From positions 17,240-81,239 of the forward strand of contig JAKAVR010000002.1 of assembly GCA_021817225.1 (NCBI GenBank): a stretch of 64,000 bases of DNA, in the 5' to 3' direction. A program made the translations under genes and the position numbers. The notes beneath the pieces were generated by a model. That model searched no databases. It was not told the origin of the DNA and saw only the letters and a list, made by a program, of their open reading frames with translations. This document shows positions 10,599 through 45,989 of the stretch, piece by piece (the first letter of the stretch is position 1; each line of letters starts with the position of its first letter). The DNA is from Thermoplasmata archaeon (GTDB taxonomy: Archaea > Thermoplasmatota > Thermoplasmata > Sysuiplasmatales > Sysuiplasmataceae).

Positions 10599-12067
<1,469 letters not shown>

Positions 12068-12429: not shown

Positions 12430-13923
12430 TTGTCATTCCGGGATGCACTTCAAATGAATGACTCTGCGAATTTCGCGGGCTATCAGGCTGACGACATTGA
12501 ATTCCTCGGCATTGTGTTCGGTCCTGTTGGAAGCTACGAGTTCAAGTTTGCTGTCACTGCTTCGGTAGAGAGGAACGAATATGTGCAGGTTCATCACGGC
12601 GCGTATGGTTGGCTCCTTGGCAGGGTGGATGAGGTGAGGCTCGAGACTGATCTGACGAGTGAAGGGGCCAAAAAAGTGGCAATGGGGGAGAGCGTGGCCT
12701 TCAGCGAAGAGGAGATTGCCCAGGCGACCATCGTTGGATACGCCGATGGCAAAGGAGGAATAGCGTCGCCTAAGCAACCTGTTGCTGCAGGAACCCGGGT
12801 ATACAGAGCGACAGACGAGACAATAGCCTCTGTACTTGGTCTTTCAAGCGAAGCGAACGGTGCGCGCATAGGAACGCTGCACGGAAGGGCACTCCCGGTG
12901 CAGATGGACATTGAGGCAATGGTGCAGAAACACATTTCCATAGTTGCAAAGACAGGGGGAGGGAAAAGCTACCTGGCCGGCGTTCTGATGGAGGAAATGC
13001 TTAAGCATTCGGTTACAACACTTGTACTCGACCCACACGGCGAATACGGCTCACTAAGGGATGCGGAGGGAAACGGTGGCCAGAAAAGTGCGTTTGCATC
13101 TGAAGTGATAGAATTTGCAACCGATGTGGAAGTCAATGCCGCAGCCCAGCCATTGCGCTTCACATGCTCAAACTTCAGTGCGTCGGAGCTTCTTTCACTG
13201 ACGGGCATGGCTGAAAACAGGGGGGCGATTTCGGCCCTGACTGTCTGTCTTGAGAGGGTGAAGGAGAAGGGGCAGGATTATGTTATACAGGACATAATAA
13301 CTGAAATGGAGGAAGGCGACAACCCGCTGCTGTCTCAGCTGAGGAAGGAGCTTGGCGTGATTTCTGCAATGAATATTTTTTCCGAACACGGGACGAGAAC
13401 GGATCAGATTGCCAACCCCGGAAAAACAACGATAATAAACTTCAAGGGAGCGACCCCGGAAGTGCAGGGACTGTTCGCAAGAAGGCTTCTTACTGCCCTG
13501 TTTGAGCAGAGGAAGAGGGGAAAGATCCCGCCCCTCCTGGTCGTGCTCGAGGAGGCACACAACTTCTGTCCACAGCAGGGGAAGACAGAGGCGAGCAGGA
13601 TAATAAGAACAATAGCCGCGGAGGGAAGGAAGTTCGGATTGTGGATCATGGTGATTACACAAAGGGCTGCGAAGGTGGACAAGAATGTGCTCAGTCAATG
13701 CAATACGCAGTTCATCCTGAAGCTCACAAACGTCAACGACATCAAAGCTGTGGCATCCTCGGTGGAGGGGATGACAGCAGAGATGCTCCAGGAAATACCC
13801 AGGCTGCAGACAGGCGTTGCAATAGCAATCGGCGGCGGTCTTCCCGTTCCGCTGCTGGTGGATGTGAGGAAGAGGCTGACACGCCACGGGGGCGAAAGCG
13901 TCGGCACTTTATGGAGGAAGTAA
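12430..13923 (+). CDS. HerA-like (DUF87) ATPase/helicase paralog
   Basis: HAS-barrel-like N-terminus. Walker A IVAKTGGGKSY, the HerA hallmark LVLDPHGEY, Walker B LLVVLEEAHNF, and ITQRAAKV. No NurA, Mre11 or Rad50 nearby. Confidence 0.65.
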   Translation: MSFRDALQMNDSANFAGYQADDIEFLGIVFGPVGSYEFKFAVTASVERNEYVQVHHGAYGWLLGRVDEVRLETDLTSEGAKKVAMGESVAFSEEEIAQATIVGYADGKGGIASPKQPVAAGTRVYRATDETIASVLGLSSEANGARIGTLHGRALPVQMDIEAMVQKHISIVAKTGGGKSYLAGVLMEEMLKHSVTTLVLDPHGEYGSLRDAEGNGGQKSAFASEVIEFATDVEVNAAAQPLRFTCSNFSASELLSLTGMAENRGAISALTVCLERVKEKGQDYVIQDIITEMEEGDNPLLSQLRKELGVISAMNIFSEHGTRTDQIANPGKTTIINFKGATPEVQGLFARRLLTALFEQRKRGKIPPLLVVLEEAHNFCPQQGKTEASRIIRTIAAEGRKFGLWIMVITQRAAKVDKNVLSQCNTQFILKLTNVNDIKAVASSVEGMTAEMLQEIPRLQTGVAIAIGGGLPVPLLVDVRKRLTRHGGESVGTLWRK

Positions 13924-18940: not shown

Positions 18941-19609
18941 TCAGTTGCCATCTATCCTGACAGCTACCTTCCTGTCCACTAGCACTCGAGAGTAAGCCTC
19001 CGGAAGAAAAGCAACATCCTCCTTTTTTACGTCAAACTCGCCGAACTCTGTTGCAAACTTGGGCACGTTTTCAACGAACCTGACCATGACGAACTTGGGT
19101 GCTTGGAGCTGTACGTCTTTCGGCGCTTCGTCCTCCGGCTCCTCAGCTCTCCGTTCCTCTACCACAATGGTTGCCTTGGAAGACAAGGGTCGCGGCGGAA
19201 TTGTCGAAGGTGTGTCTCTTGGAGGGTGCCCCGTGTGCAAGGAAGCATTCTCGTGCTCCCTTACCGCAGATATCATTCGTGTCAGAAACTCTTCCTCCTC
19301 GGCAGAGAGACCCTTCTGTACGGAAGTCTCCGACCTCCGCTGGCTAACAGCAAAGGTCGCCAGCTTCCGTGTCCTGAATTCCCATATCTGGTTGAGCAGC
19401 TTCCTTGCCTCCCTTATCTGAGTCTGAGCCGTATGCAGCAGCTCCCTGTTGGACGAACTTGCCTCTTCTTCCGCCTTCTCGAGTGATGCAATGTACTCTG
19501 CTGCCTTCCTGTAGAAATCATGCGGCAAGTCCACAAGAACATCCCCCCTGAGCGTCCTGTACACCCTTGTGATTTCGGCGTAATCCACTCTGTAATCTTC
19601 GGAAGACAT
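18941..19609 (-). CDS. gins51: GINS subunit Gins51 (Gins15), putative
   Basis: Helical A domain with LPHDFYRKAAEYI, an acidic linker, and a C-terminal beta B domain KFVMVRFVENVPKF...DVAFLPEAYSRVLVDRKVAV. This resembles the archaeal Gins51 pattern. Confidence 0.55.
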   Translation of the reverse strand: MSSEDYRVDYAEITRVYRTLRGDVLVDLPHDFYRKAAEYIASLEKAEEEASSSNRELLHTAQTQIREARKLLNQIWEFRTRKLATFAVSQRRSETSVQKGLSAEEEEFLTRMISAVREHENASLHTGHPPRDTPSTIPPRPLSSKATIVVEERRAEEPEDEAPKDVQLQAPKFVMVRFVENVPKFATEFGEFDVKKEDVAFLPEAYSRVLVDRKVAVRIDGN

Positions 19610-26799: not shown

Positions 26800-26960
26800 G
26801 GCGACCCGTGAGCTGTCTGGCTGCCATGGAGTTTTCCACTGCCCGCCCTGTTCCCGTGCTGCAAGGCAATTCGACCGCTTTCGGGCACCTCTCCCTTCTC
26901 CCCTGCTTAAATAAGCGCTCAGGGCTGGTTACATACATACCCAGACGGGAGCAGAAGCAC

Positions 26961-27665
26961 ATGTTGAAGTTCGAAAGCAATATGGCAAGGGCCACACCAG
27001 ATTCTCTAACGGTAATCGAGGGGCGAAACCGTAACAGTTGCATAATAAAGAGGGGAGAAAATACATTCATAGGCGGGCCCTCTTCGGTGACAGGCAAGCT
27101 TCTGCATTCAATCGTTTTCAGATCCCTTGCTGTTTCTGATGGAATAGTGCTCTGGATAGACGGCGGCAATTCGTTTGACCCGTACAGGATTTCGGAACTG
27201 GCTGAAAGATGCGGATACGATGGAAGAAAAATGCTCTCCAGGATAAGGATTGCCAGGGCTTTCACCGCCCATCAGATGGAGGCCATTGCACGTTCGGCCT
27301 CAAAGGAGGCCCGTGGCAACAGCATATCGATCCTTGTTGTATCATCTGTTGCGGAACTGTTCACCGGCGAAGTCGGATGGAAGGAAGGAATGGACCTCCT
27401 GAAGAGCACTGTTGGAAATCTTGGAAAACTTGCAGAGAACTGCGGCGCATGGTCCGTTATGACATCGGGCATATCCGTGAGTTCCAGCACTGAAATGGAA
27501 AGGATAGTGGATGAGAACTTCGCAAGAGTGGTGAACGTTGAGCTGGAAAATGAAGATCTTTACCTTGAAAGCGACGGACAGGTTCTGGCAGTAAGCAGGT
27601 GGAGCGAGAAAAGGCACCAGAGATCCATACTTGAGTTCACAGGCAGAGGTGATCGAGCTGGGTAG
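26961..27665 (+). CDS. RadB/RecA-superfamily-like protein with a degenerate Walker A
   Basis: FIGGPSSVTGKLLHSI sits in the Walker A position but is non-canonical. IVLWIDGGNSFDPYRISELAE resembles the RadB block VVYIDTEGGFSPERL. Start uncertain (M at 26961 or 26982; the ORF is drawn from 26808). Confidence 0.45.
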   Translation: MLKFESNMARATPDSLTVIEGRNRNSCIIKRGENTFIGGPSSVTGKLLHSIVFRSLAVSDGIVLWIDGGNSFDPYRISELAERCGYDGRKMLSRIRIARAFTAHQMEAIARSASKEARGNSISILVVSSVAELFTGEVGWKEGMDLLKSTVGNLGKLAENCGAWSVMTSGISVSSSTEMERIVDENFARVVNVELENEDLYLESDGQVLAVSRWSEKRHQRSILEFTGRGDRAG

Positions 27666-27903
27666 AACTGTTCCAACGTTCAGGACAGAAATAGAGAGGA
27701 TCGTTTCACGCTGGGAGAAATTCGGCAGCGCCCTCAGAAAGGAGGAGAAGACGTACCTTGAAAGAGTGATAGCAAAGGCAAGGCATCATTCATCCGCCTC
27801 CACATATGCCGCCCTCGTCAATCCCGTGGAGGGCATGATGCTTTCCATAATGATAGAGCAGGAAAAGGAACTAGATCTTCTCAAACGGAAGTACCATTTC
27901 TAA
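27631..27903 (+). CDS. hypothetical small helical protein
   Basis: 90 aa. It overlaps the 3' end of the RadB-like gene and ends 15 nt before the PolB gene. Confidence 0.3.
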   Translation: MSSQAEVIELGRTVPTFRTEIERIVSRWEKFGSALRKEEKTYLERVIAKARHHSSASTYAALVNPVEGMMLSIMIEQEKELDLLKRKYHF

Positions 27904-27917
27904 GAGGCAGCGGGTGG

Positions 27918-30059
27918 ATGGAAGGGTGGATAATAGATGCCTACACGGATGTGAAAAGGAACAGCGTTGTCCTGTGGGTAAAAGGAAATGAAGTAAGGAA
28001 GTTTGAATTCGGATACAGACCAACATTTCACGTCGGCGGAAACGCTGCTTCGCTGGATGAAATTGCACGAAGGCTTGACAAAATAGAGAGCGTAGACGAG
28101 AGGAGGGTTGTAAGAAAGACCGCGCCTCAAATGCAGCTTGCTGATATGCTTGAGATAAGCACGGGTGACTTTCACACATACCGCAAGATTGCAGAAGGCA
28201 TATATGCGCTTGGAGACCACACAGGCTACACCGTATACGATGCAGACATACCCATAGAGCAGCGCTTCATGCTTGATAACGGCATATTTCCGCTTGCGTT
28301 TATCTCGGCTGGAAATGGCGAGATTAAATGCCTTGATTCTCTGAATGAGATATATTATGAGATGCCGCCCCTCAATACGGCCCATCTTGACATAACATTT
28401 GAAAAGAACCCGCCTGCAAAAGACACGCGAATAGGAAGCATAGCAATAGACAGCGATATCATCGAGGATGATGAGGAGAGAATGCTTCTGGAGGCGGCGA
28501 GAATACTGAGTTCGAAGAATTACGATCTGATACTCACAAATGGTGGTGATGCCTTTGCAATAAGGCAGATGTACAGGCGTGCCGCGTGCCTGGATCTTGA
28601 TGAATTCACGCTTGGAAGGGAGGTGGGGATGAGGGGGTCGTATGCGGCAAAGAGCTACATGAGCTACGGCAGGATATTCTACAAGCCGTCACCCGCGATG
28701 CTCATGGGCAGATTGCACATAGATACACGCAACTCGTTCCTGCATATAGAGTCTGGACTGGAGGGGCTTGCAGAAATATCCAGGCTTTCCTACATGGGAC
28801 TGCAGCAGCTTTCCAGACTTTCCCCGGGCACTGCCATAAGCAGCATGGAGACAATGGAGGCGCTGAGGCAGAACGGTTCTGTGCCATGGAAGAAGAACAG
28901 GCCAGAGATGTTCAAAACCGCAGAGGAGCTAGTAGAATCTGACAGGGGAGGACTCATATTCACGCCTGTAACAGGCTTTCACAGCAATGTCTTCGGTCTT
29001 GATTTCTCATCCCTGTACCCGGCCATAATGAAAAAGGAAAACATATCCGTGGACACGCTCAACTGCAAGTGCTGCGCAGTGGATGGAAGGAATGTTCCCG
29101 GACTCGGATATCACTTCTGCGTACGCAGGACAGGACTTATACCATCCGTCATAGGCAACCTGATAATGAGGCGCAGAAAGTACAAAACAATGAGCGATGA
29201 ATTTGCAGCAAAAAGGAGGAATGCGCTCAAATGGGTTCTTGTCACATCCTTTGGCTATACGGGGTTCAGGAATGCCAAATTTGGAAGCATAGAATGCCAC
29301 GAATCAATAAATGCATTCGGCAGGGATATCCTCCTGCATGCAGCGCGAAGGGCGGAAGAGATGGGATTCAGGGTGCTACATGGCATAGTCGATTCACTCT
29401 GGATACAGGGCGAGGGGGACGCTTTAGAGTATGCCGAAAGGATAGGGAGTGAGACTGGAATACCATTTGAGGTCGAAGGCAGGTATCGCTGGATTGTTTT
29501 CCTGAACAACAAGGGGGACGGAGAGGGCAGCCTCAACAAATACTACGGCCTCTTCGATGATGGCACCTACAAGCTCAGGGGGATTGAACTCAGGAGATCC
29601 GATTCTCCCGAAATAGTCAGGTTTGCCCAGAACATAATGCTTGAATACCTGCGCGATTCGACCGACGGGAAAGATTTTGTTCAGAGGGCAAGGAACGGAA
29701 TAATGAGGGTGGCGGAACTCGTGAAGGATGTAAAAAGAGGGAGCTATCCCGTCGAAGACATGATCATAACAAAGCGTGTTTCAAAGACGCTTGATGAATA
29801 CAGGAGCAGCAACGAGCGGCAAATCGCACTGCTGCGACTCAGGGAAGCAGGGATGGAGGTTAGCGCAGGGGAAGTCATCAGATATGTTGTTGCGGCAGCA
29901 AGAAAGGACAGAATCATTGTTCCCGAACAGCTTCTTACGGACAACGATGCCTATGAGGCTGGATACTACTCCAGGCTGATTGCACGTGCGCTTGCTACGA
30001 TGCTCTTTCCCTTTGGCTACGATGAAAAAAAGATTCTTTCAATGTTCAGGTATTCTTGA
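27918..30059 (+). CDS. family-B DNA polymerase, PolB2-like (exonuclease motifs degenerate)
   Basis: PolB N-terminal signature WIIDAYTDVKRNSVVLWVKG...YRPTFHV. Motif A DFSSLYPAIM (29001..29030). Motif B is divergent (KWVLVTSFGYTGF). Motif C reads HGIVDSLW (29379..29402) instead of YGDTDS. Exo I is DIT rather than DIE, and Exo II is NGGDAFA rather than NGDSFD. At 713 aa it is shorter than replicative PolB. Confidence 0.75.
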   Translation: MEGWIIDAYTDVKRNSVVLWVKGNEVRKFEFGYRPTFHVGGNAASLDEIARRLDKIESVDERRVVRKTAPQMQLADMLEISTGDFHTYRKIAEGIYALGDHTGYTVYDADIPIEQRFMLDNGIFPLAFISAGNGEIKCLDSLNEIYYEMPPLNTAHLDITFEKNPPAKDTRIGSIAIDSDIIEDDEERMLLEAARILSSKNYDLILTNGGDAFAIRQMYRRAACLDLDEFTLGREVGMRGSYAAKSYMSYGRIFYKPSPAMLMGRLHIDTRNSFLHIESGLEGLAEISRLSYMGLQQLSRLSPGTAISSMETMEALRQNGSVPWKKNRPEMFKTAEELVESDRGGLIFTPVTGFHSNVFGLDFSSLYPAIMKKENISVDTLNCKCCAVDGRNVPGLGYHFCVRRTGLIPSVIGNLIMRRRKYKTMSDEFAAKRRNALKWVLVTSFGYTGFRNAKFGSIECHESINAFGRDILLHAARRAEEMGFRVLHGIVDSLWIQGEGDALEYAERIGSETGIPFEVEGRYRWIVFLNNKGDGEGSLNKYYGLFDDGTYKLRGIELRRSDSPEIVRFAQNIMLEYLRDSTDGKDFVQRARNGIMRVAELVKDVKRGSYPVEDMIITKRVSKTLDEYRSSNERQIALLRLREAGMEVSAGEVIRYVVAAARKDRIIVPEQLLTDNDAYEAGYYSRLIARALATMLFPFGYDEKKILSMFRYS

Positions 30060-31179
30060 GGCGCGAGAAGAAGCCCTTGCCCTTTTCCTCTTCAAGCTCT
30101 CCAAATTTCTTGAGTATCTGCTTCTGCTCCGCAGAAAGCTTTCTCGGAACGACAACCTTGAGCGTAACGTATATATCGCCATTACCACGGCTGTTGAGCC
30201 TTGGCATCCCGAGAGAACTCATCCTGAAGACGGTGCCCGGCTGTGTTCCAGGCGGGACCTGCAGCTTTGCCTTCGAGACCATCGTCGGTACGTCGACCTC
30301 ACCGCCAAGAGCGGCAAGGGTGAATGGGACTTCAGCGGTGTAATAGAGGTTTTCTCCTTCCCTGTTGAAGACCTCGTGCTCTGTCACATGGATGACGACA
30401 TAAAGGTCTCCGCTTGGCCCGCCGTTTGCTCCTGCCTCACCGGCACCCCGTACGCGGAGGCGCATTCCATCCTCTGCCCCCTTTGGGATTGAAACCTCTA
30501 TGGTGGAAGTTGTCTGCTTCTTGCCAGAACCGCCGCAGGATTTGCACCTCTCCCTGATCACCTTGCCGCTGCCCCCGCAGGTCTGGCATGTCCTCACGGT
30601 AACGAAATGACCGCCAAGGGCAGTCTGCCTGTAACTGAGCTGGCCGCTGCCATGGCATGTAGGACACTGTTCCAGCTTGCCACTTTCCGCTCCGGTGCCG
30701 CTGCATTTTTCACACCTGACATCCCGGGGGATCTCAAGCCGCCTGCTCGAGCCCTTGTACGCCTCATCAAGCGAAATCTCCAGATCATACTGGAGTGACG
30801 CCCCTGTTTCGGGATAGGTGCCACGCCTGCCTGCCTGGCCGCCGAAGAAGAAGTCAAAGAGCGAACCTCCTCCGCTGAAACCCATACCCCCAAAGAGATC
30901 GCTTATGTCCTGGAAGTGTGTGAAATTTGACCAGTCGAAGCCCCGCGACCCGAATGTCACTCCCTCGGATCCGAAGGAGTCGTAGTTCCTCCTCTTGTCC
31001 GGATCCATGAGCACTTCGTATGCTTCGGAGACCTCCTTGAACTTCTCCTCCGCTTCCTTCCTCTCGAGTTTGGAAACGTCCGGGTGGTACTGCTGGGCGA
31101 GCTTCCTGTAGGCCCTTTTTATGTCGTCGGGACTGGCTGTTTTGCTGATGCCCAGTGTCTCATAGTAATCCTTCGTCAT
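30046..31179 (-). CDS. dnaJ: chaperone DnaJ
   Basis: J domain with HPD (YRKLAQQYHPD), a G/F region, and four CxxCxGxG zinc repeats. Confidence 0.9.
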   Translation of the reverse strand: MTKDYYETLGISKTASPDDIKRAYRKLAQQYHPDVSKLERKEAEEKFKEVSEAYEVLMDPDKRRNYDSFGSEGVTFGSRGFDWSNFTHFQDISDLFGGMGFSGGGSLFDFFFGGQAGRRGTYPETGASLQYDLEISLDEAYKGSSRRLEIPRDVRCEKCSGTGAESGKLEQCPTCHGSGQLSYRQTALGGHFVTVRTCQTCGGSGKVIRERCKSCGGSGKKQTTSTIEVSIPKGAEDGMRLRVRGAGEAGANGGPSGDLYVVIHVTEHEVFNREGENLYYTAEVPFTLAALGGEVDVPTMVSKAKLQVPPGTQPGTVFRMSSLGMPRLNSRGNGDIYVTLKVVVPRKLSAEQKQILKKFGELEEEKGKGFFSRLKNT

Positions 31180-31203
31180 CGGGCCCGTACCTCAGTGTCT
31201 GCT

Positions 31204-33069
31204 CTACTTGTCATCAACTATCTTGTAGTTAGCATCTACGTACCCGTCCCCGTCCTTGCCATCCTTCTTGTCGTCGCCGGAGGGTGGGGGTGGCTGCTGC
31301 GACGCTTCTTGGCTCGCTTCTGCCTGCTTCTGGTATATTTTGGATGAAACCTCGTATACCTTCTTTGACACCTGGTCTATCTTGGACTGCATGGCGGCGT
31401 CGTCTCCTCGACCAATAATATCGTCGAGCTCCTTCAGTTCCTTCTCAATGGACTCTCTGTCCTCCTGAGATATCTTGTCCTTGAGGTCTTCAAGTGTTTT
31501 CTTCGTGCTGTAGGAGAGGCTTTCTGCCCTGTTTCTCAGTTCAGCCTTTGCCTGACTCTTCTTGTCTTCCTCCGCGAACTGATCCGCCTCCTTCATCATA
31601 CGATCTATCTCATCCTTGGATAGCTTTGTGCTGGCGGAGATTGTGATCCTCTGTTCCTTCCCCGTGCCGAGATCCTTTGCACTTACGTTCATGATCCCGT
31701 TGGCGTCGATATCGAATGTGACCTCTATCTGTGGAACTCCTCTGGGAGCTGGTGGTATCCCTATCAGGCTGAATCTGCCCAAAGTCACATTGTTGACAGC
31801 CATCGGCCTCTCGCCCTGGAGGACGTGAATGTCCACGCTCGGCTGCCCGTCAGAAGCTGTGGTGAAGACTTCTGACTTTTTTGTGGGTATAGTTGTATTG
31901 CGCTCTATCAGCTTGTGCAGCACTCCGCCCTGTATCTCAACTCCGAGCGAGAGCGGTGTGACATCGAGCAGCAGAATGTCCTTCACTGTTCCCTCGAGTA
32001 CGCCTCCCTGGATTGCAGCCCCCATGGAAACGCATTCCATTGGGTCGACTCCCCTGACAATCTTCTGCCCAAGCATCTCCTCTACGAACTTCTGCACAAC
32101 GGGCATGCGCGTCGGCCCGCCAACCATGATGATCTTGTCTACGTTCTGAGGAGTTATCTTTGCATCAGCCAGGGCCTGGGTGATTGGGTGCCTGCACCTT
32201 TCAATTATTGGTCTGATCAGATCTTCAAGCTTGGCTCTGGTGACTTTCATTGTAAGATGCTTGGGTCCGGATGCATCCTGCGCGATGAAGGGGAGGTTTA
32301 CTTCCGTCTCAACAATTGTAGACAGTTCCACCTTTGCCTTTTCGCATGCTTCTCGCACACGCTCGGCAGCCATTTTGTCGTTGTGAAGATCGACGCCGGT
32401 CTCCGTCTTGAACGTTGAAATGACGTAATCGACAAGCGTCTTGTCCATGTCTGTTCCGCCGAGCTGTGTATCGCCGCTTGTCGAAATCACCTCGAACACG
32501 CCCTGTCCGAACTCCATGATTGTTACATCGAGCGTCCCGCCGCCAAGATCGAAGACAAGTATTTTCTGCTCTTTTTCTGACTTGTCGAGACCGTATGCTA
32601 GCGCGGCTGCAGTGGGCTCATTTATTATCCTCACAACTTCAAGGCCAGCTATTGTGCCTGCGTCTTTTGTTGCCTGCCTCTGGTTATCGTTGAAATAAGC
32701 AGGGACTGTTATCACTGCCTTCTGGACCGCTGACCCGAGGAAGGCTTCCGCATCACGCTTAATCTTCTGCAGAATGAATGCGGATATCTGCTGCGGGGTG
32801 TACTCCTTTCCCTGAATCTTGTACTTGTAATCTGTGCCCATCTTCCTCTTCGCTGCATATATGGTGCCTTCTGGATTGGTAATTGACTGCCTTCTTGCAG
32901 GTTCTCCCACAAGGACACCGTCTTTTGTGAATGCAACTACGGAGGGGAATGCCTTCCCACCGATGCTAGTTCCCTCGGCGCTTGGTATGATCGTGGGTCT
33001 TCCTCCCTCGATTACCGAAGCAGCCGAATTGCTCGTTCCCAAGTCGATACCTATAATCTTTGTCATCAT
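31204..33069 (-). CDS. dnaK: chaperone DnaK (Hsp70)
   Basis: [15 protein letters not shown] and DLGGGTLDV, full Hsp70 length. Confidence 0.95.
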
Positions 33070-33084
33070 TTCACCTCTGATATT

Positions 33085-33795
33085 CTAAACTTCATTTCGC
33101 TCCTTGTCATTTTCATCCTTCTTGGGAGGATTTCTTGAAACCCTGACCTTGGCGGGCCTCAGAACTTTTCCGCCCAGTGTAAAACCTCTCTGGTACACTT
33201 CGGTTATCTGGTTGTCCTCGTAGTCCGGGTTTTCCTCAACCACAATTGCCTCATGATAGTACGGATCGAACTTGCCGCCAGTCTGTATTTCTTTCAGGCC
33301 CTCTTCTGCAAGGACCTGGGCTATGTTGTTTCTGATCTTCTCGATACCGGCCCTGAACGCATCATAGCCGCCATTTCCGCTCGACTCTGCAAGGCCCCGG
33401 TCAAGATCGTCAACAACGGTGACCAGCTTCCTCACCAGCTTCTCAACCACATACTTGCTGTAATCTTCTCGTTCCCGTTCAATCCTCTTTCTGTAATTGT
33501 CAAATTCAGCCTGTATCTTCTTGAGGAGGTTCTCATAGTCCCTTATGATCCCTTCCTTCTCCTGAAGGTTCTTCTTGAGACCCTCAACTTCGCCTGCCGC
33601 CCTCTTTTCCCTGACATCCTGTTCCTCAAGCCTCGGTGCGGCCGGCCTCTCGCCAAGTGCCTTCTCCTTCTTCTGCTCAAGCCTTGGGGCTGAATCCTTT
33701 ATTTCATTCGAATTCACGACGGACTCATCGGTGCCTTCCTCTTCCTCTCCAAGTCCGCCCGCTGCATTTGCCTTTTCCGAATTCTTTTCTGCCAT
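33085..33795 (-). CDS. grpE: nucleotide exchange factor GrpE
   Basis: First gene of the grpE-dnaK-dnaJ operon: acidic/coiled-coil N-terminus and a GrpE C-terminal domain. Confidence 0.8.
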   Translation of the reverse strand: MAEKNSEKANAAGGLGEEEEGTDESVVNSNEIKDSAPRLEQKKEKALGERPAAPRLEEQDVREKRAAGEVEGLKKNLQEKEGIIRDYENLLKKIQAEFDNYRKRIEREREDYSKYVVEKLVRKLVTVVDDLDRGLAESSGNGGYDAFRAGIEKIRNNIAQVLAEEGLKEIQTGGKFDPYYHEAIVVEENPDYEDNQITEVYQRGFTLGGKVLRPAKVRVSRNPPKKDENDKERNEV

Positions 33796-33889
33796 CAGTC
33801 ACACCAGCCGGCCTACTACAGCCGTATTGATCGCAAGTCCAGCTTAAATCTCTGCTGGGCCCTCGGCCCATCCCGCAGTTTCTTTCCGC

Positions 33890-35530
33890 TCAGTCTTCTT
33901 CTTCGCCTGGCGAGGGGCCACCCGGACCTCCGGCTCCTCCTCCACCGCCGCTCTTGGAAGCAATCACGTCGTCTATCCTCAAAATCATGACAGCGGCATC
34001 AGTTGCAGATTGTATTGCCTGCTTGTCTACACGGATAGGTTCAAACACCTTCTGTTTTTTCATGTCTGTGACCTTTCCGTTAATCACGTCAACTCCATGA
34101 TACATCATACCATTCTTGTGGCTGCTCCTTAGGTCTATCAGTATGTCTATCGGGTCCATGCCCGCGTTTTCAGCCAGAGCTGTGGGTATGATTTCCAGTG
34201 CGTTTGCAAATGCCTCTATTGCAATCTGCTCCCTGCCTCCAACCGTCGTTGCGTAATCCTTCAACCTCTGAGAAAGCTCTATGGCAGTTGCTCCCGCCCC
34301 AACAGTAAGCTTGCCATCTTCGACCGCTAGGCTGATGACGCTCAAAGCATCCACCAGGGACCTTTCTGCCTCATCCACAACATGCTCGCTTCCTCCCCTG
34401 AGAAGGATTGAAACCGACTTAGGGTTCCTGCACCCGGTAACGAAAGTCATTTCGTCATCCTGGATCTTCTTCACTTCGACGAGTTTCGCGTGACCCAGGT
34501 CCTTGGAGCTCAATTCATCAAGCTTTGAAACAATGGCTGCGCCGGTGGCCCTTGAGAGCTTCTCCATGTCGGACTTCTTCACTCTCCTCACCGCCAGGAT
34601 GCCTTCTTTAGCAAGGAAGTGCTGTGCAAGATCGTCTATTCCCTTCTGGCAAAAGACAACGTTCGAACCTGATTTCTTGATGGAATCAACCAATCCCCTC
34701 AGGAACTGTTCCTCTTCATCGAGAAAACCGCGCAGCTGAGATGGATCCGTTATTTCTATCTTTGACTCGAGTTCAGTCTTCTTGACTTCGAGCGCCACAT
34801 CAATCACCGCAATCTTGGCGTTTTCGACTGTTCTGGGCATGGAGGGGTGCACCGGTTCCTTGTCGATTATCACACCGCTTAAGAGCTCAGTATCTGAGAG
34901 TCCGCCACCCTGTTTCTTGACGATCTGGATGTTCTCCCTGTCTGCTTTGATGCCTTTGTCTCCGTGTTCAGCCACGCTTGTGACTGCATCGACCGCAATC
35001 TTGGCGAGCTTTTCCCTGCTGCCTGTCACACCCTTGGAACTCATTGCCGTTTCGGCAACTGTCTGAAGGACTGCCTTGTCGCTTGGATCGACGGGGAATG
35101 ATATCAACTCGATGTACTCCATGCATTTGGAGGCTGCCTCCTTGAAACCTTTCGTGACAACTGTCGGATGCACTTTCGACTCAATCAGTTCCTGCGCCTT
35201 CTTGAGAAGCTCACCTGCAAGCACAACAGCGGTTGTGGTTCCATCACCGCAGACTGCATCCTGCGTCTTGGCCACCTCGACAAGCATCTTTGCCGCAGGG
35301 TGCTCGATGTCCATTTCCTTCAGGATGGTCACACCATCATTTGTGATTACAACATCCCCAAGGCTGTCGACCAGCATCTTGTCCATACCACGCGGTCCAA
35401 GGGTTGTCTTCACGGCGTTTGCGATGGCCCTGGCTGCACTGATGTTGTTAGCCTGGGCATCTCGGCCCTTCTCCCTTTTTGTTCCTTCTTTCAAAATCAA
35501 AATAGGTATTTGCTGCTGAGCGCCCATCAT
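33890..35530 (-). CDS. ths: thermosome subunit (group II chaperonin)
   Basis: [42 protein letters not shown]. The Gly-rich C-terminal tail [12 protein letters not shown] is typical. Confidence 0.9.
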
Positions 35531-39688: not shown

Positions 39689-42001
39689 ATGAAGAAACTG
39701 GTCATCAGCGAGAAGAACAGTGTCGCGATCAGACTCGCCACAATTCTCTCCTCCGCGAAATTCAAGAGGGATTATGCGTCCGGCGTCCCAATTTACAAAT
39801 TTGATGTCGAAGGGACCGAATACGCCATTATGGGCCTCAGGGGACATATCGTTGAGCTTGACTATCCGCCTGAGTATAACGACTGGATGAAGGTGGACCC
39901 CAAACACCTGGTATATGCTGAGCCGTACAAGAGAGTCACTTTCAGGAAGGCGGTGGACGCCCTGATCAAAGAGGCACGCGATTCAGACTGGGTGATAATC
40001 GCAACCGACTTCGACAGAGAGGGGGAACTTATAGGGCTGGAGGCACTCGAACTCCTGCAGTCTGGGAAGGAAGCTTCGAAAGTAGGCACGGATGGAGGAT
40101 TCCTGCCCAACGTAAATGTGAAGAGGGCAAGGTTCAGCAGCCTGGGAAGGAACGACGTGCTCAAGGCGTTTGAGAACCTGAATGAGCCGGATGTCAGGCT
40201 TGCCAGGTCAGCCGAGTGCAGACAGGTCATAGACCTTGTCTGGGGCGCAACACTCACGAGGATGATTTCAATCAGCGCAAACCAGGTCGGGAAGAACTTC
40301 CTTTCTGTAGGAAGGGTGCAGAGCCCGACGCTCTCATTGATTTCAAAAAGGGAAATCGAAATAGAGAAATTCGAGCCCAAGAAATTCTACGAAATCAAAG
40401 GTGTCGCCAAAAAGGATAAGGAATTCCAGACATGGCACAAGTCGAACCCGTTTTGGTCGGAAGAGGAAGTCAAAACGGTCTTTGAAAAGGTCAGGGAAGT
40501 CAGGAAGGGCACAATCAAGAGCGTGATTGCTGAAGAAAAGGAAGAATATCCTCCACCACCGTTTTCCACTACACTCTTTCTTATCGAAGCAACAAGGCTC
40601 GGCTACTCAGGAGCCGAGGCCATGGACATAGCAGAACGGCTGTATTCAAGCGGCATAATTTCCTATCCAAGGACTGACAATACTGTCTACCCGAGGTCGC
40701 TGTATCTCAAGGGAATCCTTGAGAAATTCAAGGGCACCGAATTCGAATCGGAGGCGACCGAGATACTCGCGCAGGACAGGCTCATACCATCACGTGGCCA
40801 GACTGAGACCACTGACCATCCGCCAATATATCCGGTGGAGGCGGTGTCTAGAAAGAAGATTGGAAAGAGAGAGTGGCCAGTATACGAGCTCGTAGTCAGG
40901 AGATTCTTCGCGACAGTTGCGCCCAAGACTTCCTACAGGGAGACGGACATCGAACTTGAAATCGGTGGCGAGCCCTTCGCAGCCAAGGGAAGAGAACTGC
41001 TCAGGGAAGGATGGCGCCGGTACTATCCATATTTCAAATTCAATGAGTCAATCGTTCCTGAACTTAAGGAAGGCGATACTGTGGATGTGGAGAGTCTCCA
41101 TATTCACGAGGACAAGACCAAGCCTCCCAGCAGGTATTCACAGGGTTCCCTGATAAGGGAAATGGAAAAGAAGGGTCTTGGGACAAAAAGCACCAGGCAT
41201 GAGATAATACAGAAACTCATTGACAGGAAATACATACAGGGGCAGACGATCAAACCGACATTGACGGGCCGATCTGTTTCCACAGCACTGGAACAGTCCG
41301 CCCCCGAGATATGTGACAGCAAGATGACTTCCCACCTCGAGGAGGACATGGACAGAATTGCAGAGGGTGCGGCGGAGATGAAGGAAGTCGTCGACGAATC
41401 GAGAGAGATGCTAATCTCAATCGTTGACGAAATAAAGACCAACAATACGCAGATTGGCAATATGATCAAGGAGGCAATTCTTCAGGAAAAGAGAATAGGC
41501 AAATGCCCTTCATGCGGTGGCGATCTGCGCATTGTTGAAGGCCCGCAGAACAAGTTTGTCGGATGTTCCAACTATCCGGAGTGCAGGGTCACCTATTCAC
41601 TTCCTGCCGGTTATCTCGTTCAGCCCACCGACAAGGAATGCGACAAATGCGGTCTTCCACTCATAAAGCTGATAACAAGAGGGCAGAAGCCTGTCGAATC
41701 ATGTGTTGACCCCAACTGTGAGACGAACAGAATGACCGGCTCCATAGGCAAGTGCCCAAAATGCGGCAAACAGCTGCGTGTTGTCAGGTCACAGCGTGGC
41801 AAGCGGTTCCTTGGATGCGAAGGGTATCCCTCATGCGATGTAACATACCCCCTGCCGCAGTTTGGCACGATTAACTCACTCGGAACCGCATGCGAGGCAT
41901 GTGGCGCGCCAATGATGGAGGTAAGCTCCGGCAGGAAGGGGAAGTGGAAGCTCTGCCCCAACATGAACTGCCCGAGCAAGAAGAAAAATTCCAAGGCATA
42001 A
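39689..42001 (+). CDS. topA: DNA topoisomerase IA with C-terminal zinc ribbons
   Basis: Toprim N-terminus (LVISEKNSVA, IIATDFDREGE). The catalytic Tyr region SYPRTD is present. The C-terminus carries three or more C4 ribbons (CPSCGG...CSNYPEC, CDKCG...CVDPNC, CPKCGK...CEGYPSC). Confidence 0.85.
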   Translation: MKKLVISEKNSVAIRLATILSSAKFKRDYASGVPIYKFDVEGTEYAIMGLRGHIVELDYPPEYNDWMKVDPKHLVYAEPYKRVTFRKAVDALIKEARDSDWVIIATDFDREGELIGLEALELLQSGKEASKVGTDGGFLPNVNVKRARFSSLGRNDVLKAFENLNEPDVRLARSAECRQVIDLVWGATLTRMISISANQVGKNFLSVGRVQSPTLSLISKREIEIEKFEPKKFYEIKGVAKKDKEFQTWHKSNPFWSEEEVKTVFEKVREVRKGTIKSVIAEEKEEYPPPPFSTTLFLIEATRLGYSGAEAMDIAERLYSSGIISYPRTDNTVYPRSLYLKGILEKFKGTEFESEATEILAQDRLIPSRGQTETTDHPPIYPVEAVSRKKIGKREWPVYELVVRRFFATVAPKTSYRETDIELEIGGEPFAAKGRELLREGWRRYYPYFKFNESIVPELKEGDTVDVESLHIHEDKTKPPSRYSQGSLIREMEKKGLGTKSTRHEIIQKLIDRKYIQGQTIKPTLTGRSVSTALEQSAPEICDSKMTSHLEEDMDRIAEGAAEMKEVVDESREMLISIVDEIKTNNTQIGNMIKEAILQEKRIGKCPSCGGDLRIVEGPQNKFVGCSNYPECRVTYSLPAGYLVQPTDKECDKCGLPLIKLITRGQKPVESCVDPNCETNRMTGSIGKCPKCGKQLRVVRSQRGKRFLGCEGYPSCDVTYPLPQFGTINSLGTACEACGAPMMEVSSGRKGKWKLCPNMNCPSKKKNSKA

Positions 42002-43600: not shown

Positions 43601-44289
43601 TTCTTCCCTCCTTCTCCCGCACAGTCTGCAGGCATATCCCGAATCAGTGTCCTCTCCTTTGCAAGAAGACCGGCAAGCATGCCCGCATTGAAGGAGAGGT
43701 CAACGAGAGATTTCATCGAATTTTCGACCGAAAAATCCTCAAGCGCTTTCCCGCAATCGCGCTCAATTCCCCCTTCGGTGTAATGCTTTGAGTCATCCAG
43801 CACAGAGCCGAGATGTATCGAGACCATATCCGCCCCCGGAATGAAATTCATTGAATCCATTTTTCCAAGCAGCCTCTCCGCTTCGTTCCTGTGCCTGTTG
43901 TACTCATCGGAAATTTCAGTCGTTCCGGAGTAATTGCCCCTGTCGAAGGAAACAGGAAGGGATAGCTGCACATTGCCGATCGCAGTAACGGAGGAGAAAG
44001 CCAATTGGCTCTTCTGCAGCGTGTCCAATTCCCCCTTGAGCCAACCGGACCAGAATGCGATCTCGATGAGCGTTGATGCTTGATCGTCGGCTGAGATGCC
44101 TGCGTTAGGCGGCGAATTATCCACAAGCCTGTGTCTTATCCTGTCGGCCCACCACATGTTGGAACCGTCACTGTCGCTCAGAATTGCCTCCGCTTCACTG
44201 ACCTCTGATTCCACCTCCTTCAGCCAGGTGGACAGCATTGATCCGAAGAAACTCATTCTCTTGCTGCAGTCAACTGGCAGCCGCTTCAT
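43597..44289 (-). CDS. hypothetical soluble protein (operon member)
   Basis: About 230 aa from the M at 44289 (an ATGA overlap with the VirB4-like stop). No recognisable motif and no TM helix. Confidence 0.4.
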   Translation of the reverse strand: MKRLPVDCSKRMSFFGSMLSTWLKEVESEVSEAEAILSDSDGSNMWWADRIRHRLVDNSPPNAGISADDQASTLIEIAFWSGWLKGELDTLQKSQLAFSSVTAIGNVQLSLPVSFDRGNYSGTTEISDEYNRHRNEAERLLGKMDSMNFIPGADMVSIHLGSVLDDSKHYTEGGIERDCGKALEDFSVENSMKSLVDLSFNAGMLAGLLAKERTLIRDMPADCAGEGGKK

Positions 44290-45989
44290 GCATGCATCGC
44301 CTCCCCGATTAGGCAGACGGCTTCGTCCAACTTCGAAATGGCCATGATACTCATCAGGGCTGAGGGCGTCACCGGTAGCTTTGGTTCGGAGTTGCACACT
44401 TCCCTTTCCTCATCACTGCAGTGAACAATGAGGGGTACCTTCATGCCGGAAGTGACGAGGATGCACTTTCCGACGCCTTCTGTCCTCGGGTGTGAGGAGG
44501 CAATAAACTCCAAATCGCCGTCATTAAGCTCAAAGAACGATCGCATTCTCATGCTCAGTTTTTCATGGCGGAAGACAAAGAAATGGCTGCAGTTGTTCAG
44601 CAGACCGCCGTCCGGGTCCTGACTCAGAAAATCATCGAAATTCTGCGAAGCAAGCAGGACGCTCAACCCATAATGGCGTGAATGCCTCATTAGCTCGGAA
44701 ACGAAGGCGGATGATGCGGGACTCCTTGAAACTGTCCAGGCCTCGTCGAGAACGAGAGTCTTCCTGCCATGGGCCCTTCTGCACAACTCGAATACAAGGC
44801 CAGAAACGAGGCAGATGACATCTTCAAGCATTCCCTTGCTGACAGAACCCATGTCAAAGACAATATGGCCGCCGTTTCCGGAAAGAACGCATTTTCCTTC
44901 AAGCAGGAAGGACATCCTGGAAATGTCCGCCATGTTGCCCCCAAATGAGAGCTCTGCATCATGCAGGTGAGGCAGCGCTTCGAAGAATGAAGATAGGTAC
45001 TGTTCAGAATTGTCGGTCGCATACTTAGTGAGCAGTTGCCTGAATACGACTCCTTCCCTTTCAGTCAGCTTGAAAATACTCTGGACAAAGCGAGTCAGGT
45101 AATGGGCGAATGTAATTGCTTCTGACATTTTGAGCGAGCCGAGGCCAAGACCCTCATGAAAGACGTTGACTACCTCAGCACCCGACTGGAGGCCAACAGC
45201 AAAAAACTCACCCAGGGGATCGATTACGAATATTCTGTTTGACGCGAAGCCTGACTCCCTCAGCATTAACAGCTTCATGAAAAAACTCTTGCCGCTTCCG
45301 CTCTTGCCGATTACGACCGAATTGTAGTTCGGGGTCGAAAAACGATCATGGACAACCGGAGTGCCATCTATTGCATTACAGCCAACGGGAACGCCCATCT
45401 CCTGCAACAAGGGGGACTGGGTGAAAGGAACCAGGGCGGGAAGGGATGAAGTGCTCACAATCGGGCATCTGTCGAAGGAGGGAACAGTTCCTGGAGAAAA
45501 ATCGGCCAATACCTTGAACTGCAGATACTTCAGCCTTGAGTAACGGACGGAAAAGGCCTTCAGCTCGCTCGTAAGCAATTCCGTCCGTTCCCTTAACTCC
45601 GAGCCTGTCTCGGCAACAACCGCAAAAAGAAGAGATGCATAGAAGAGCCTCGTCCTGTCTGATCGCAGCTCAGAAAGGAGCTGCCTCCCGAGTTCAAGCC
45701 TCGTCTCCTGGTAATCTGCCGTTCTGCCTGCGTTCACCCTGTCGAGAATCTCAGCCGACAGGTTGAGCGTGGACCTTTCTACCATTAAAATGGATCTCTC
45801 TTTTGAAATCTGGAAAAGGGACACTGATGCACCCAGGAAAGGAAGACGCAGGAGCATATCCGACAGCCAGTCTGAGGGAAGATTGAACGGAAATCCTGTC
45901 ACAAAGATGAAGGTGATCCGCCTCTTTCCGATATCCGCCCTTTCAATCCCGTTTGCGCTCCGGTGACGATTGTGGAACACAAGATTCAC
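44286..45989 (-). CDS. VirB4/TrbE/CedB-like conjugation-type ATPase
   Basis: Walker A VVIGKSGSGKSFFMKLL, the motif FVIDPLGEF, and Walker B TLVLDEAWTV (the DEAW hallmark of VirB4/AAA_10), then LLASQNFDDF. About 250 aa of N-terminal non-ATPase domain; 567 aa, as in archaeal CedB. Confidence 0.65.
   Translation of the reverse strand: MNLVFHNRHRSANGIERADIGKRRITFIFVTGFPFNLPSDWLSDMLLRLPFLGASVSLFQISKERSILMVERSTLNLSAEILDRVNAGRTADYQETRLELGRQLLSELRSDRTRLFYASLLFAVVAETGSELRERTELLTSELKAFSVRYSRLKYLQFKVLADFSPGTVPSFDRCPIVSTSSLPALVPFTQSPLLQEMGVPVGCNAIDGTPVVHDRFSTPNYNSVVIGKSGSGKSFFMKLLMLRESGFASNRIFVIDPLGEFFAVGLQSGAEVVNVFHEGLGLGSLKMSEAITFAHYLTRFVQSIFKLTEREGVVFRQLLTKYATDNSEQYLSSFFEALPHLHDAELSFGGNMADISRMSFLLEGKCVLSGNGGHIVFDMGSVSKGMLEDVICLVSGLVFELCRRAHGRKTLVLDEAWTVSRSPASSAFVSELMRHSRHYGLSVLLASQNFDDFLSQDPDGGLLNNCSHFFVFRHEKLSMRMRSFFELNDGDLEFIASSHPRTEGVGKCILVTSGMKVPLIVHCSDEEREVCNSEPKLPVTPSALMSIMAISKLDEAVCLIGEAMHA

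Follow-up and report, generated by a model that had tools for sequence, protein, structure and literature searches.

An archaeal PolB2 DNA polymerase gene next to its iRadA and PPB2 partners in a Thermoplasmata archaeon, downstream of a putative damage-response-like promoter element

The locus that we have analysed is located on contig JAKAVR010000002.1 of a Thermoplasmata archaeon (assembly GCA_021817225.1), within a stretch of 64,000 nucleotides that we refer to as "the window". Three genes follow each other on the forward strand: a gene for an inactivated RadA with the RadA/Rad51 fold (iRadA), a small gene for the protein PPB2 (arCOG07300 / DUF8156) and the gene for a Dpo2-type family-B DNA polymerase (PolB2), while a TATA-box-like sequence and a conserved promoter-proximal element precede the first of them (Table 1). 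The two partner genes, located directly upstream of the polymerase, had been missed by the original prediction. Their order, iRadA-PPB2-PolB2, is that of the published operon class 1a, to which the operons of Thermoplasmata and Methanomassiliicoccus are assigned as "1a (iRadA-PPB2-PolB2)" in PMC11791011; Rad51-fold and DUF8156/PPB2 genes also occur upstream of PolB2 in loci L001-L005 and L086-87. Genes for orc1/cdc6, SRAP or DUF72 were found neither beside the operon nor among the 20 further larger open reading frames that were scanned in the window, and the Rfam and tRNA scans gave nothing in or near the operon, their sole match being a 16S rRNA gene in another part of the window.

Table 1. 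Features of the PolB2 locus, in the coordinates of the window.
Feature	Position	Strand	Description
Conserved promoter-proximal element cgCTTTCGGGCACCTCTCCC	26876..26895	+	just 5' of the TATA box of the operon
TATA-box-like sequence TTAAATAA of the operon promoter	26907..26914	+	does not vary when aligned to L001, L003 and L006
iRadA, RadA/Rad51-fold	26961..27665	+	234 aa; Pfam Rad51 1.6e-11
PCNA-box-like QRSILEF, iRadA C-terminus	27618-27638	+	QxxLxEF is C-terminal in 21/44
Shine-Dalgarno sequence GAGGTGAT for PPB2	27646..27653	+	GAGGTGAT, then 4-5 nt before the PPB2 start, in dozens of related loci
PPB2 (arCOG07300 / DUF8156)	27658..27903	+	81 aa if the start is CTG 27658; N-terminal arm (M)GRTVPTFR
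PolB2 (Dpo2-type family-B DNA polymerase)	27918..30059	+	713 aa
Degenerate Exo II motif TNGGDAFAIRQM	28536..28571	+	aa 207-218; A214 (28557-28559) at the position of catalytic KOD D215
Motif A LDFSSLYP	28998..29021	+	aa 361-368; D362 = metal ligand (KOD D404), Y367 = steric gate (KOD Y409)
Invariant Cys cluster C383, C385, C386, C401 (CxCC...C)	29064..29120	+	two Cys in the corresponding segment of KOD
Motif B LKWVLVTSFGYTG	29226..29264	+	K438 = KOD K487
Motif C HGIVDS	29379..29396	+	aa 488-493; H488 for Tyr, I490 for the first Asp, D492 = kept metal ligand (KOD D542)

The polymerase reading frame matches the Pfam family DNA_pol_B (1e-27) and the PolB of Thermococcales (3e-44), a profile search against the PolB3 of the PDB gives 6.6e-90, and an identical copy of the protein is recorded elsewhere. 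Its AF2 model (pLDDT 91.5) is matched by Foldseek, over the whole length, with the DNA complexes of the KOD and 9N polymerases (TM up to 0.78, E 1e-41). The family-B fold is complete, from the N-terminal and exonuclease-like domains to the palm, the fingers and the thumb. The top NCBIfam models are two short models named "type B DNA-directed DNA polymerase" (465 and 366 bits), the Pol I models reaching at most 160 bits. The gene is real and under purifying selection, with a dN/dS of 0.07-0.15 (0.15 against an orthologue that is 96% identical); relatives are encoded in the genomes of at least 588 species, and the alignment of 106 sequences contains 60 invariant columns. An intein is inserted within motif B in some relatives, and the closest subclade carries extra small deletions.

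The comparison with the subfamilies of archaeal PolB places the protein, by its sequence, with PolB2 and not with PolB1 or PolB3. The segment between motifs B and C is identical to catalogued PolB2s at 41/61 positions (67%) and to KOD at 20/61 (33%), while in the N-terminal half the first 381 residues match the PolB2 of Leptospirillum ferriphilum at 2e-59 (BLASTP); matches to the exonuclease region of Thermococcales are at 19-25 bits. The PolB2 references used were the entries of L. ferriphilum and of Thermoplasmata. The PolB2 table of PMC11791011 lists HGIVDSLWI, with "IVD", 13 times, L. ferriphilum included. Although PolB3, the euryarchaeal replicative/repair PolB, provides the nearest solved structure, we have not filed the protein under that name, because its motif C (HGIVDS), its motif B (KWVLVTSFG) and its Exo II position (A214) are non-canonical. 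The polymerase is an ordinary member of the archaeal PolB2 family, which has been described before.

The active site has been compared with that of KOD through the residue pairs given by HMMER (I490/KOD D540, D492/KOD D542, D362/KOD D404 and A214/KOD D215). Together with the translation of the reading frame, these pairs bear out three claims of the original prediction, i.e. that motif C reads HGIVDS, with I490 in place of the first aspartate and D492 kept, that the aspartate of motif A, D362, is kept within LDFSSLYP, and that the catalytic aspartate of Exo II has become an alanine, A214. These substitutions had been treated as a peculiarity of a single gene, which they are not: the motif-C, motif-B and exonuclease substitutions are, in the family alignment, invariant traits that form the signature of a large, described family. 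H488, G489, I490 and D492 are invariant in the 106 aligned relatives, and HGI[VI]DS is present in all 120 relatives listed. In motif B, V442, T443 and F445 stand where KOD has N491, S492 and Y494; K438 and F445 are invariant, position 442 is V in 105/106 sequences and position 443 is T in 97/106. The dNTP-binding residues R419, K423 and K438, the steric gate Y367 and the tyrosine of the KxY motif, Y542, are invariant or nearly so, and the equivalents of the third-metal glutamate are likewise conserved with respect to Thermococcales PolB3. D362, found in 106/106 sequences, and D492 align with the two residues that hold metals A and B in KOD, and both are 100% conserved in the alignment. An alternative alignment, with canonical DTD and DxE residues elsewhere in the protein, had been named as the observation that would overturn the prediction; no DTD occurs anywhere in the 713 residues, and the only DxD/DxE strings (DAD108, DSD178, DDE/DEE184-185, DLD226, DGE534 and DND675) are all outside the catalytic motifs; they belong to the N-terminal domain, to a helix cap, to the thumb or to an insertion that is not conserved.

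The exonuclease-like domain has lost its catalytic residues at the positions that can be aligned, whereas the site of Exo I is ambiguous at the level of sequence. The column of the Exo II aspartate contains D or E in 5% of the PolB2 family. For Exo I, the string AHLDITFEK (aa 155-163), where the original prediction had placed the motif (D158/T160), is present as claimed and contains no DxE, but that placement is not one that the sequence can fix: phmmer and the family profile put KOD D141/E143 on S141/N143, with a posterior of about 0.3-0.6, while the pairwise global alignments of the 106 relatives with the KOD and P. abyssi segments scatter over many positions. As these approaches disagree, we give two candidate positions for Exo I, neither of which holds a conserved acidic pair in the family alignment. 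The region of Exo III is shortened, and a tentative manual alignment reads it as F274...E278. The broader statement that the exonuclease acidic residues are absent is correct for the catalytic set, but too wide for the domain, as D158 occurs in the very alignment on which that statement was made, and acidic residues are conserved in the domain at D140, D211, D269 and E278.

The gene that opens the operon encodes a RadA/Rad51-like protein without an N-terminal domain, and is called in public assemblies as a 234-aa Rad51-family gene. Its matches to RadA/Rad51/Dmc1 are weak, and connect residues 54-168 with model positions of about 124-248 of 316; the Walker A motif, GxxxxGK[ST], is absent from iRadA and from 43 orthologues. 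The second gene gave no match in our local Pfam and NCBIfam copies, and we identify its product as PPB2 because PF26485 is recorded for an identical gene, and because of the MGRT motif, the synteny and the predicted fold. PPB2 proteins have a length of about 80-90 aa; their arm motif, defined in PMC11791011, carries arginines at positions 3 and 9 and is followed by three helices; the single-sequence AF2 model (pLDDT 76) likewise consists of three helices and a free arm. The N-terminus GRT[VA]P[TS][YF]R is found in about 50 loci, where the codon that precedes GRT is ATG in 31, GTG in 14, TTG in 3 and CTG in 3, and in the window PPB2 probably starts at CTG.

In our reading, the gene at 27918..30059 very probably encodes the catalytic subunit of an archaeal PolB2 complex, expressed from a canonical iRadA-PPB2-PolB2 operon of a Thermoplasmata archaeon related to Methanomassiliicoccales. 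The family was described in 2008 as having the tyrosine and the first aspartate of motif C replaced, the distal aspartate kept and no clear DIE motif, and was then proposed to be inactive (PMC2527604); the protein would accordingly be a catalytically dead scaffold that has lost both activities and whose only role is structural, within a complex for replication or repair, a possibility that the original prediction also offered. The replaced tyrosine and first aspartate of YGDTD, the degenerate exonuclease motifs, the deviations of motif B (N to V, S to T, Y to F) and the company of two non-enzymatic partners are all compatible with such a role. However, the purified Dpo2 of S. islandicus, with the motif C IID, is a robust polymerase that lacks 3'-5' exonuclease activity (PMC8764526), and in KOD ternary complexes the ligands of metals A and B are D404 and D542 but not D540, the counterpart of the replaced residue (PMC5718519). 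Since the catalytic metals are bound by the aspartate of motif A and the distal aspartate of motif C, a missing first aspartate does not amount to a dead family-B polymerase; D362, D492, K438, R419, K423, Y367 and Y542 are, moreover, as (nearly) invariant as would be expected of a working active site. The conserved metal ligands, the purifying selection and the active Dpo2 make the inactive scaffold an unlikely explanation. The other option of the original prediction, a proofreading-free enzyme of low fidelity, comes close in its first half and is inexact in its second, as Dpo2 is accurate on undamaged DNA; it inserts poorly opposite lesions and is specialised in the extension of mismatched or lesion-paired termini.

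Upstream of the operon, the TATA-like TTAAATAA is located 30 nt before the position where the relatives have the ATG of iRadA, a distance that suggests a leaderless start at that position; the window has ATA there (26937-26939). The scan for sigma-70 promoters and terminators returned counts below the shuffle mean, and is uninformative for an archaeon. The element that precedes the TATA box has the consensus cA[CT]TTTC[GA]SSCACCTCYCCC in the relatives, with a length of 18-20 nt; in about 24 Methanomassiliicoccales/Thermoplasmata relatives it is the best match to the position weight matrix (PWM) in the whole locus, in each case just 5' of the TATA box of the operon, and it tracks the first gene where the genes are arranged otherwise. 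The operon of the cultured Methanomassiliicoccus luminyensis (locus L004) has the element with 2 mismatches. With a PWM from which the site of the window had been left out, 26876..26895 reaches 26.0 bits, against 17.7 bits for the next match and 18.7 bits for the shuffle maximum; that next-best site, at 8952, is within the range of shuffled sequences and has been rejected as a second copy.

The element resembles the DNA-damage response element of Sulfolobus, ANTTTCRG....CTC (AATAGTTTCRGWDTACTCWS), which is bound by Orc1-2 (PMC6061795): it contains an ANTTTC-like block and a CTC block, at a spacing equal to that of the Sulfolobus Orc1-2 site, the copy of the window having G where most relatives carry the A of ANTTTC. 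Our literature search found no paper on such an element outside Sulfolobales. On this resemblance we tentatively regard the element as a putative euryarchaeal counterpart of the Sulfolobus one, an assignment that is possible but that we would not favour over its negation.

The same resemblance to an Orc1-type binding site could be read differently, with PolB2, iRadA and PPB2 acting together with Orc1/Cdc6 in the initiation or regulation of replication, at origins or stalled forks, an option that was raised in 2014; euryarchaeal polB2 neighbourhoods are reported to be associated with arORC2 genes (PMC4104785). Against it, no orc1/cdc6 gene is adjacent to the operon in the window, and in Sulfolobus, where Dpo2 is damage-induced in an Orc1-2 dependent manner, the link to Orc1-2 is the transcriptional control of the damage response (PMC6061795), while genetics place Dpo2 in damage tolerance and mutagenesis; we consider this role improbable, slightly more so than that of a dead scaffold. 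That the gene is a pseudogene, or a paralogue of the replicative PolB in decay, might be suspected from the shortened and degenerate exonuclease domain and the small deletions of the closest subclade, but is refuted by the conservation data, i.e. the intact reading frame, the low dN/dS, the invariant columns, the spread over species and the relatives that host a motif-B intein.

Between the window and the class 1a operons of Timinskas et al. 2025 (PMC11791011) nothing substantive differs: the gene order, the motif C HGI[VI]DSLW ("IVD"/"IID"), the MGRT arm of PPB2, and an iRadA without an ATPase motif and with a C-terminal PCNA-box-like motif are common to both, while in the lineage of the window PPB2 apparently has a CTG start and the leaderless ATG of iRadA has been lost. 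The Dpo2 of S. islandicus and Saccharolobus solfataricus are the only PolB2s that have been characterised biochemically and genetically. By its published description, Sulfolobus Dpo2 has Ile for the first aspartate (401-IID-403, as compared with 490-IVD-492 here), no exonuclease active site, and PPB2 and iRadA as partners, as in the window, and its promoter has an ANTTTC element that the one of the window resembles; its gene order, however, is PPB2-PolB2-iRadA (class 3a) and the decay of its exonuclease domain has gone further, and activity, damage induction and Orc1-2 control have been demonstrated for Sulfolobus only.

The nearest solved structures belong to the PolB3 of Thermococcales (KOD, 9N, Pfu and P. 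abyssi PolB), which share with the PolB2 of the window the aspartate of motif A, the distal aspartate of motif C, the lysine of motif B and the tyrosine of KxY. The Thermococcales enzymes have YxDTD, KxxxNSxYG and intact Exo I, II and III motifs and proofread, whereas the PolB2 of the window has HGIVDS and KWVLVTxFG, 8 residues inserted into the KxY hairpin, the cluster of four Cys and an exonuclease domain of reduced length. Two functional analogies are drawn in PMC11791011. One is with eukaryotic Pol zeta (Rev3), which belongs to family B, has an inactive exonuclease and serves as an extender during translesion synthesis; the other is with the Pol V mutasome of E. coli, a multisubunit assembly that includes a RecA-family protein. 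The PolB2 of the window is orthologous to neither of them, Pol V being a Y-family polymerase. Pol zeta retains the canonical motif C.

By analogy with Sulfolobus Dpo2, the PolB2 of the window would be an active polymerase without proofreading, and may serve translesion synthesis, chiefly through extension from primer ends that are mismatched or paired with a lesion; this activity is extrapolated from the enzymes of Sulfolobales, which are distant and have another gene order (class 3a). The published AlphaFold models of other species predict an assembly PolB2 : iRadA : PPB2(3), in which the N-terminal MGRT arm of PPB2 would be located between PolB2 and iRadA, and in-silico models, also of other species, point to a tether to PCNA, probably through QRSILEF at the C-terminus of iRadA. 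DNA damage may switch the operon on through the conserved ANTTTC-like element that precedes the TATA box, if the Sulfolobus circuit is taken as the model.

The finding of the polymerase itself matters little, as the motifs of PolB2 (2008), its operon (2013-2014), its activity (2020-2022) and its complex, modelled in 2025 with Thermoplasmata and Methanomassiliicoccus included, have all been published. What is gained is annotation: the names PolB2, iRadA and PPB2 can be given to three genes that are generic or unnamed in the public records that we have examined, and the annotated start of PPB2 should move to CTG 27658. The promoter-proximal element, in turn, is a lead for testing whether an Orc1-2 DNA-damage circuit is also found in archaea beyond Sulfolobales; if the tentative assignment is true, an Orc1-2-type damage regulon over PolB2 would be common to Thermoproteota and Thermoplasmatota, and might be an ancestral archaeal trait.

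The open reading frame encodes a family-B polymerase (Pfam DNA_pol_B, 1e-27; the Pfam exonuclease model falls narrowly under its cut-off), with the Thermococcales PolB enzymes as the closest solved structures (E = 3e-44); its AF2 model has a complete fold (pLDDT 91.5, pTM 0.88) and is matched by Foldseek over its whole length at up to TM 0.78, the top scores belonging to the DNA-bound KOD and 9N structures. The strings quoted in the original prediction all occur where it had placed them, and in the alignment with KOD, a Thermococcales PolB3, I490 lies opposite D540, the first aspartate of motif C, D492 opposite D542, the retained motif A aspartate D362 opposite D404, and A214 opposite the Exo II aspartate D215. 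A DTD string, sought across the 713 residues, is absent; the few DxD and DxE strings are all located outside the catalytic motifs. Since an identical protein is recorded in other assemblies and dN/dS is 0.15 against an orthologue with 96% identity, the gene is neither an artefact nor a pseudogene.

Our database search has returned 1170 relatives, of which 120 are listed, those that are named coming chiefly from Methanomassiliicoccales and other Thermoplasmata; 106 of the listed relatives have been aligned. Motif C reads HGI[VI]DS in 120/120 listed relatives, while H488, G489, I490, D492, D362, the motif B lysine K438, F445 and Y542 (KxY) are invariant in the alignment, with R419, K423 and Y367 nearly so; as judged from these sequences, the motif substitutions are a family trait and no peculiarity of this gene. 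At least 588 species, scanned at one genome per species, have a relative bearing HGIVDSLW or IECHESIN: the top match (96% identity) is a MAG named 'Thermoplasmata archaeon', and the more distant carriers include Methanoperedens and Bathyarchaeia.

This conserved clade of archaeal family-B polymerases was described by Rogozin et al. 2008 (PMC2527604) and named PolB2 by Makarova et al. 2014 (PMC4104785), being encoded alongside an inactivated RadA and a small arCOG07300 protein; the partners' newer names, iRadA and PPB2, come from Timinskas et al. 2025 (PMC11791011), who also compiled a catalogue of the operons and built a model of a PolB2 : iRadA : PPB2(3) complex. In the table of the latter study, the operons of Thermoplasmata and Methanomassiliicoccus are assigned to class '1a (iRadA-PPB2-PolB2)', the exact 9-mer HGIVDSLWI ('IVD') occurs 13 times, and every PolB2 is stated to lack an intact exonuclease site (PMC11791011). 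The N-terminal 381 residues match the N-terminal half of the Leptospirillum ferriphilum PolB2 at 2e-59, against only 19-25 bits for Thermococcales PolB, and the segment from motif B to motif C is identical at 41/61 positions to two catalogued PolB2s, against 20/61 for KOD-type PolB3. The gene is a member of an already known family in an already known operon, also within Thermoplasmata. Some relatives of ~900 aa (P0031, P0036, P0040 and P0103, among others) contain a mini-intein of ~170 aa (PF14890 in several) within motif B, between LVT and CFGYTGY.

Features of the PolB2 operon, of its surroundings and of the loci of relatives (L numbers)
Feature	Location	Strand	Remark
Promoter element CTTTCGGGCACCTCTCCC	26878-26895 (span 26876-26895)		5' of operon TATA box
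TATA-like box TTAAATAA	26907-26914		eleven nt past element
iRadA	26961..27665	+	Pfam Rad51 1.6e-11
PCNA-box-like QRSILEF	27618-27638		near iRadA C-terminus
PPB2	about 27658..27903	+	DUF8156 (PF26485) on identical gene in public assemblies
PolB2	27918..30059	+	uninterrupted, 713 aa
AHLDITFEK	aa 155-163		PolB2
TNGGDAFAIRQM	aa 207-218		PolB2
Motif A LDFSSLYP	aa 361-368		PolB2
CxCC...C (C383, C385, C386, C401)	29064-29120		PolB2
Motif B KWVLVTSFGYTG	29226-29264		PolB2
Motif C HGIVDS	aa 488-493, nt 29379-29396	+	PolB2
dnaJ-dnaK-grpE-thermosome	30046-35530	-	convergent to PolB2 operon
16S rRNA gene, complete, archaeal	10600-12067	-	Rfam RF01959, 1496 bits
HerA/DUF87-type ATPase gene	12430-13923	+	
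HerA/DUF87-type ATPase gene	44286-45989	-	
GINS-like gene	18941-19609		
Topoisomerase gene	39689-42001		
Element copies in relatives	L001 2961-2978; L003 2970-2987; L004 2975-2992; L008 1963-1980; L016 1943-1960; L028 1964-1981		among others

At Exo II, where A214 replaces the catalytic aspartate, the column is 5% acidic across the 106 relatives. For Exo I, phmmer and the family profile place S141/N143 opposite KOD D141/E143 at low posterior probability, the original prediction points to D158/T160 in a predicted strand (aa 154-161), and the 106 relatives, when aligned pairwise, give widely scattered positions. Aspartate and glutamate together account for 25% (141) and 20% (143), or 34% (158) and 21% (160), of the aligned residues, and a conserved acidic pair, sought at both candidate positions in this alignment, is found at neither; as in 2008, Exo I is not placeable from sequence. 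The claim that exonuclease acidic residues are lacking was loosely worded: the catalytic set is gone, but D140, D211, D269 and E278 are conserved acidic residues of the exonuclease domain.

The ligands of metals A and B in the ternary complexes of KOD are D404, D542 and a backbone carbonyl, and the first aspartate of DTD is not listed with them (PMC5718519). Because the equivalents of D404 and D542 are invariant in the aligned relatives and those of the third-metal glutamates are mostly retained (the E520 column is 95% acidic), the polymerase centre is chemically intact, save for the Y-to-H and D-to-I changes in motif C and the N/S/Y-to-V/T/F changes in motif B. The latter correspond to V442, T443 and F445, present in nearly all relatives, as against the canonical N491, S492 and Y494 of KOD. 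The canonical asparagine, serine and tyrosine touch the nascent base pair, and the family-wide deviation might be linked to mismatch extension. The four-cysteine cluster, a possible metal site, is invariant in the 106 relatives, compared with only two cysteines in the aligned KOD segment; the 2025 study of PolB2 does not mention it in its main text (PMC11791011).

Purified Dpo2, the PolB2 of S. islandicus, with IID in motif C, shows robust nucleotide incorporation, works better with Mn2+ than with the same amount of Mg2+, and is distributive, with undetectable exonuclease; its copying of undamaged DNA is accurate and its insertion opposite lesions poor, whereas mismatched or lesion-paired ends are extended efficiently (PMC8764526), and damage-induced mutagenesis requires Dpo2 (PMC11791011). 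The original prediction, which allowed either an inactive scaffold or a low-fidelity, proofreading-free enzyme, is partly right: the proofreading-free enzyme stands, while a dead scaffold is unlikely, since this biochemistry and the way in which the active site is conserved both contradict it. On the basis of fold and active-site conservation and of Dpo2 biochemistry, the window PolB2 would serve as catalytic subunit of a translesion 'extender' that lacks proofreading; its partners would be iRadA and a PPB2 trimer, and PCNA would probably be reached via iRadA. Whatever goes beyond conserved sequence and fold is extrapolated from Sulfolobales and from published in-silico models.

The iRadA product aligns with RadA/Rad51 models from model position ~124 onward only, so that its N-terminal domain and Walker A region are both missing; GxxxxGK[ST], sought in it and in 43 orthologues, occurs in none. 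A C-terminal QxxLxEF is present in 21/44 iRadA orthologues, and QRSILEF corresponds to the PCNA-binding motif that is commoner in iRadA than in PolB2 (PMC11791011). In relatives L001, L003 and L006, the iRadA ATG is located ~30 nt past the TATA box, a spacing that suggests leaderless mRNA; in the window and the identical contigs L086 and L087, ATA stands in its place, the next in-frame ATG being 26961 (region 26937-26963).

The PPB2 N-terminus, GRTVPTFR, is the published 'MGRT' arm with arginines at positions 3 and 9, and its single-sequence model has a free arm, then three helices. Its start is probably CTG 27658: the window and its closest relatives have CTG before GRT, where other loci have ATG (31), GTG (14) or TTG (3), and the Shine-Dalgarno GAGGTGAT lies 4-5 nt 5' of this codon, at the same distance in all loci (window region 27646-27660). 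Public gene calls start upstream, at TTG 27631 or GTG 27649; with either start, the conserved arm would be buried. The order Rad51-like, DUF8156, PolB is kept in relatives ranging from 79% identity down to the 40% of Methanomassiliicoccus luminyensis. PolB2 and dnaJ share 14 nt at their 3' ends (30046-30059), and their convergent arrangement also occurs in relatives with as little as 58% identity (L001, L003); none of the HerA/DUF87-type, GINS-like and topoisomerase genes adjoins the operon.

The promoter element has the consensus cA[CT]TTTC[GA]SSCACCTCYCCC and is located 8-12 nt 5' of the TATA box of PolB2 operons; where the genes are ordered otherwise, it lies ahead of the operon gene that comes first. 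It is the best PWM site of the whole locus in ~24 Methanomassiliicoccales/Thermoplasmata loci, and with the window's own copy left out of the PWM, the window site scores 26.0 bits (next site 17.7, shuffled maximum 18.7), being the only significant copy in the 64 kb. A pattern drawn only from four close relatives also occurs, at 0-3 mismatches, in seven distant loci, between -1026 and -1074 relative to the start of PolB2; these make up 7 of its 15 hits at this stringency across ~600 kb of distant loci.

In S. islandicus, the damage-response element AATAGTTTCRGWDTACTCWS (ANTTTCRG....CTC) is bound by Orc1-2, on which dpo2 induction depends (PMC6061795); the consensus at the PolB2 operons shares ANTTTCR and a CTC block with it, at equal spacing. 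A role of PolB2 in replication initiation with Orc proteins was floated in 2014; orc1/cdc6 was not found nearby among the scanned window ORFs, and the Orc1-2 link in Sulfolobus proved transcriptional. A decaying paralogue is excluded by purifying selection and breadth of conservation. Our literature search has not found such an element described outside Sulfolobales, and the promoter element is the sole lead of this analysis with some novelty.
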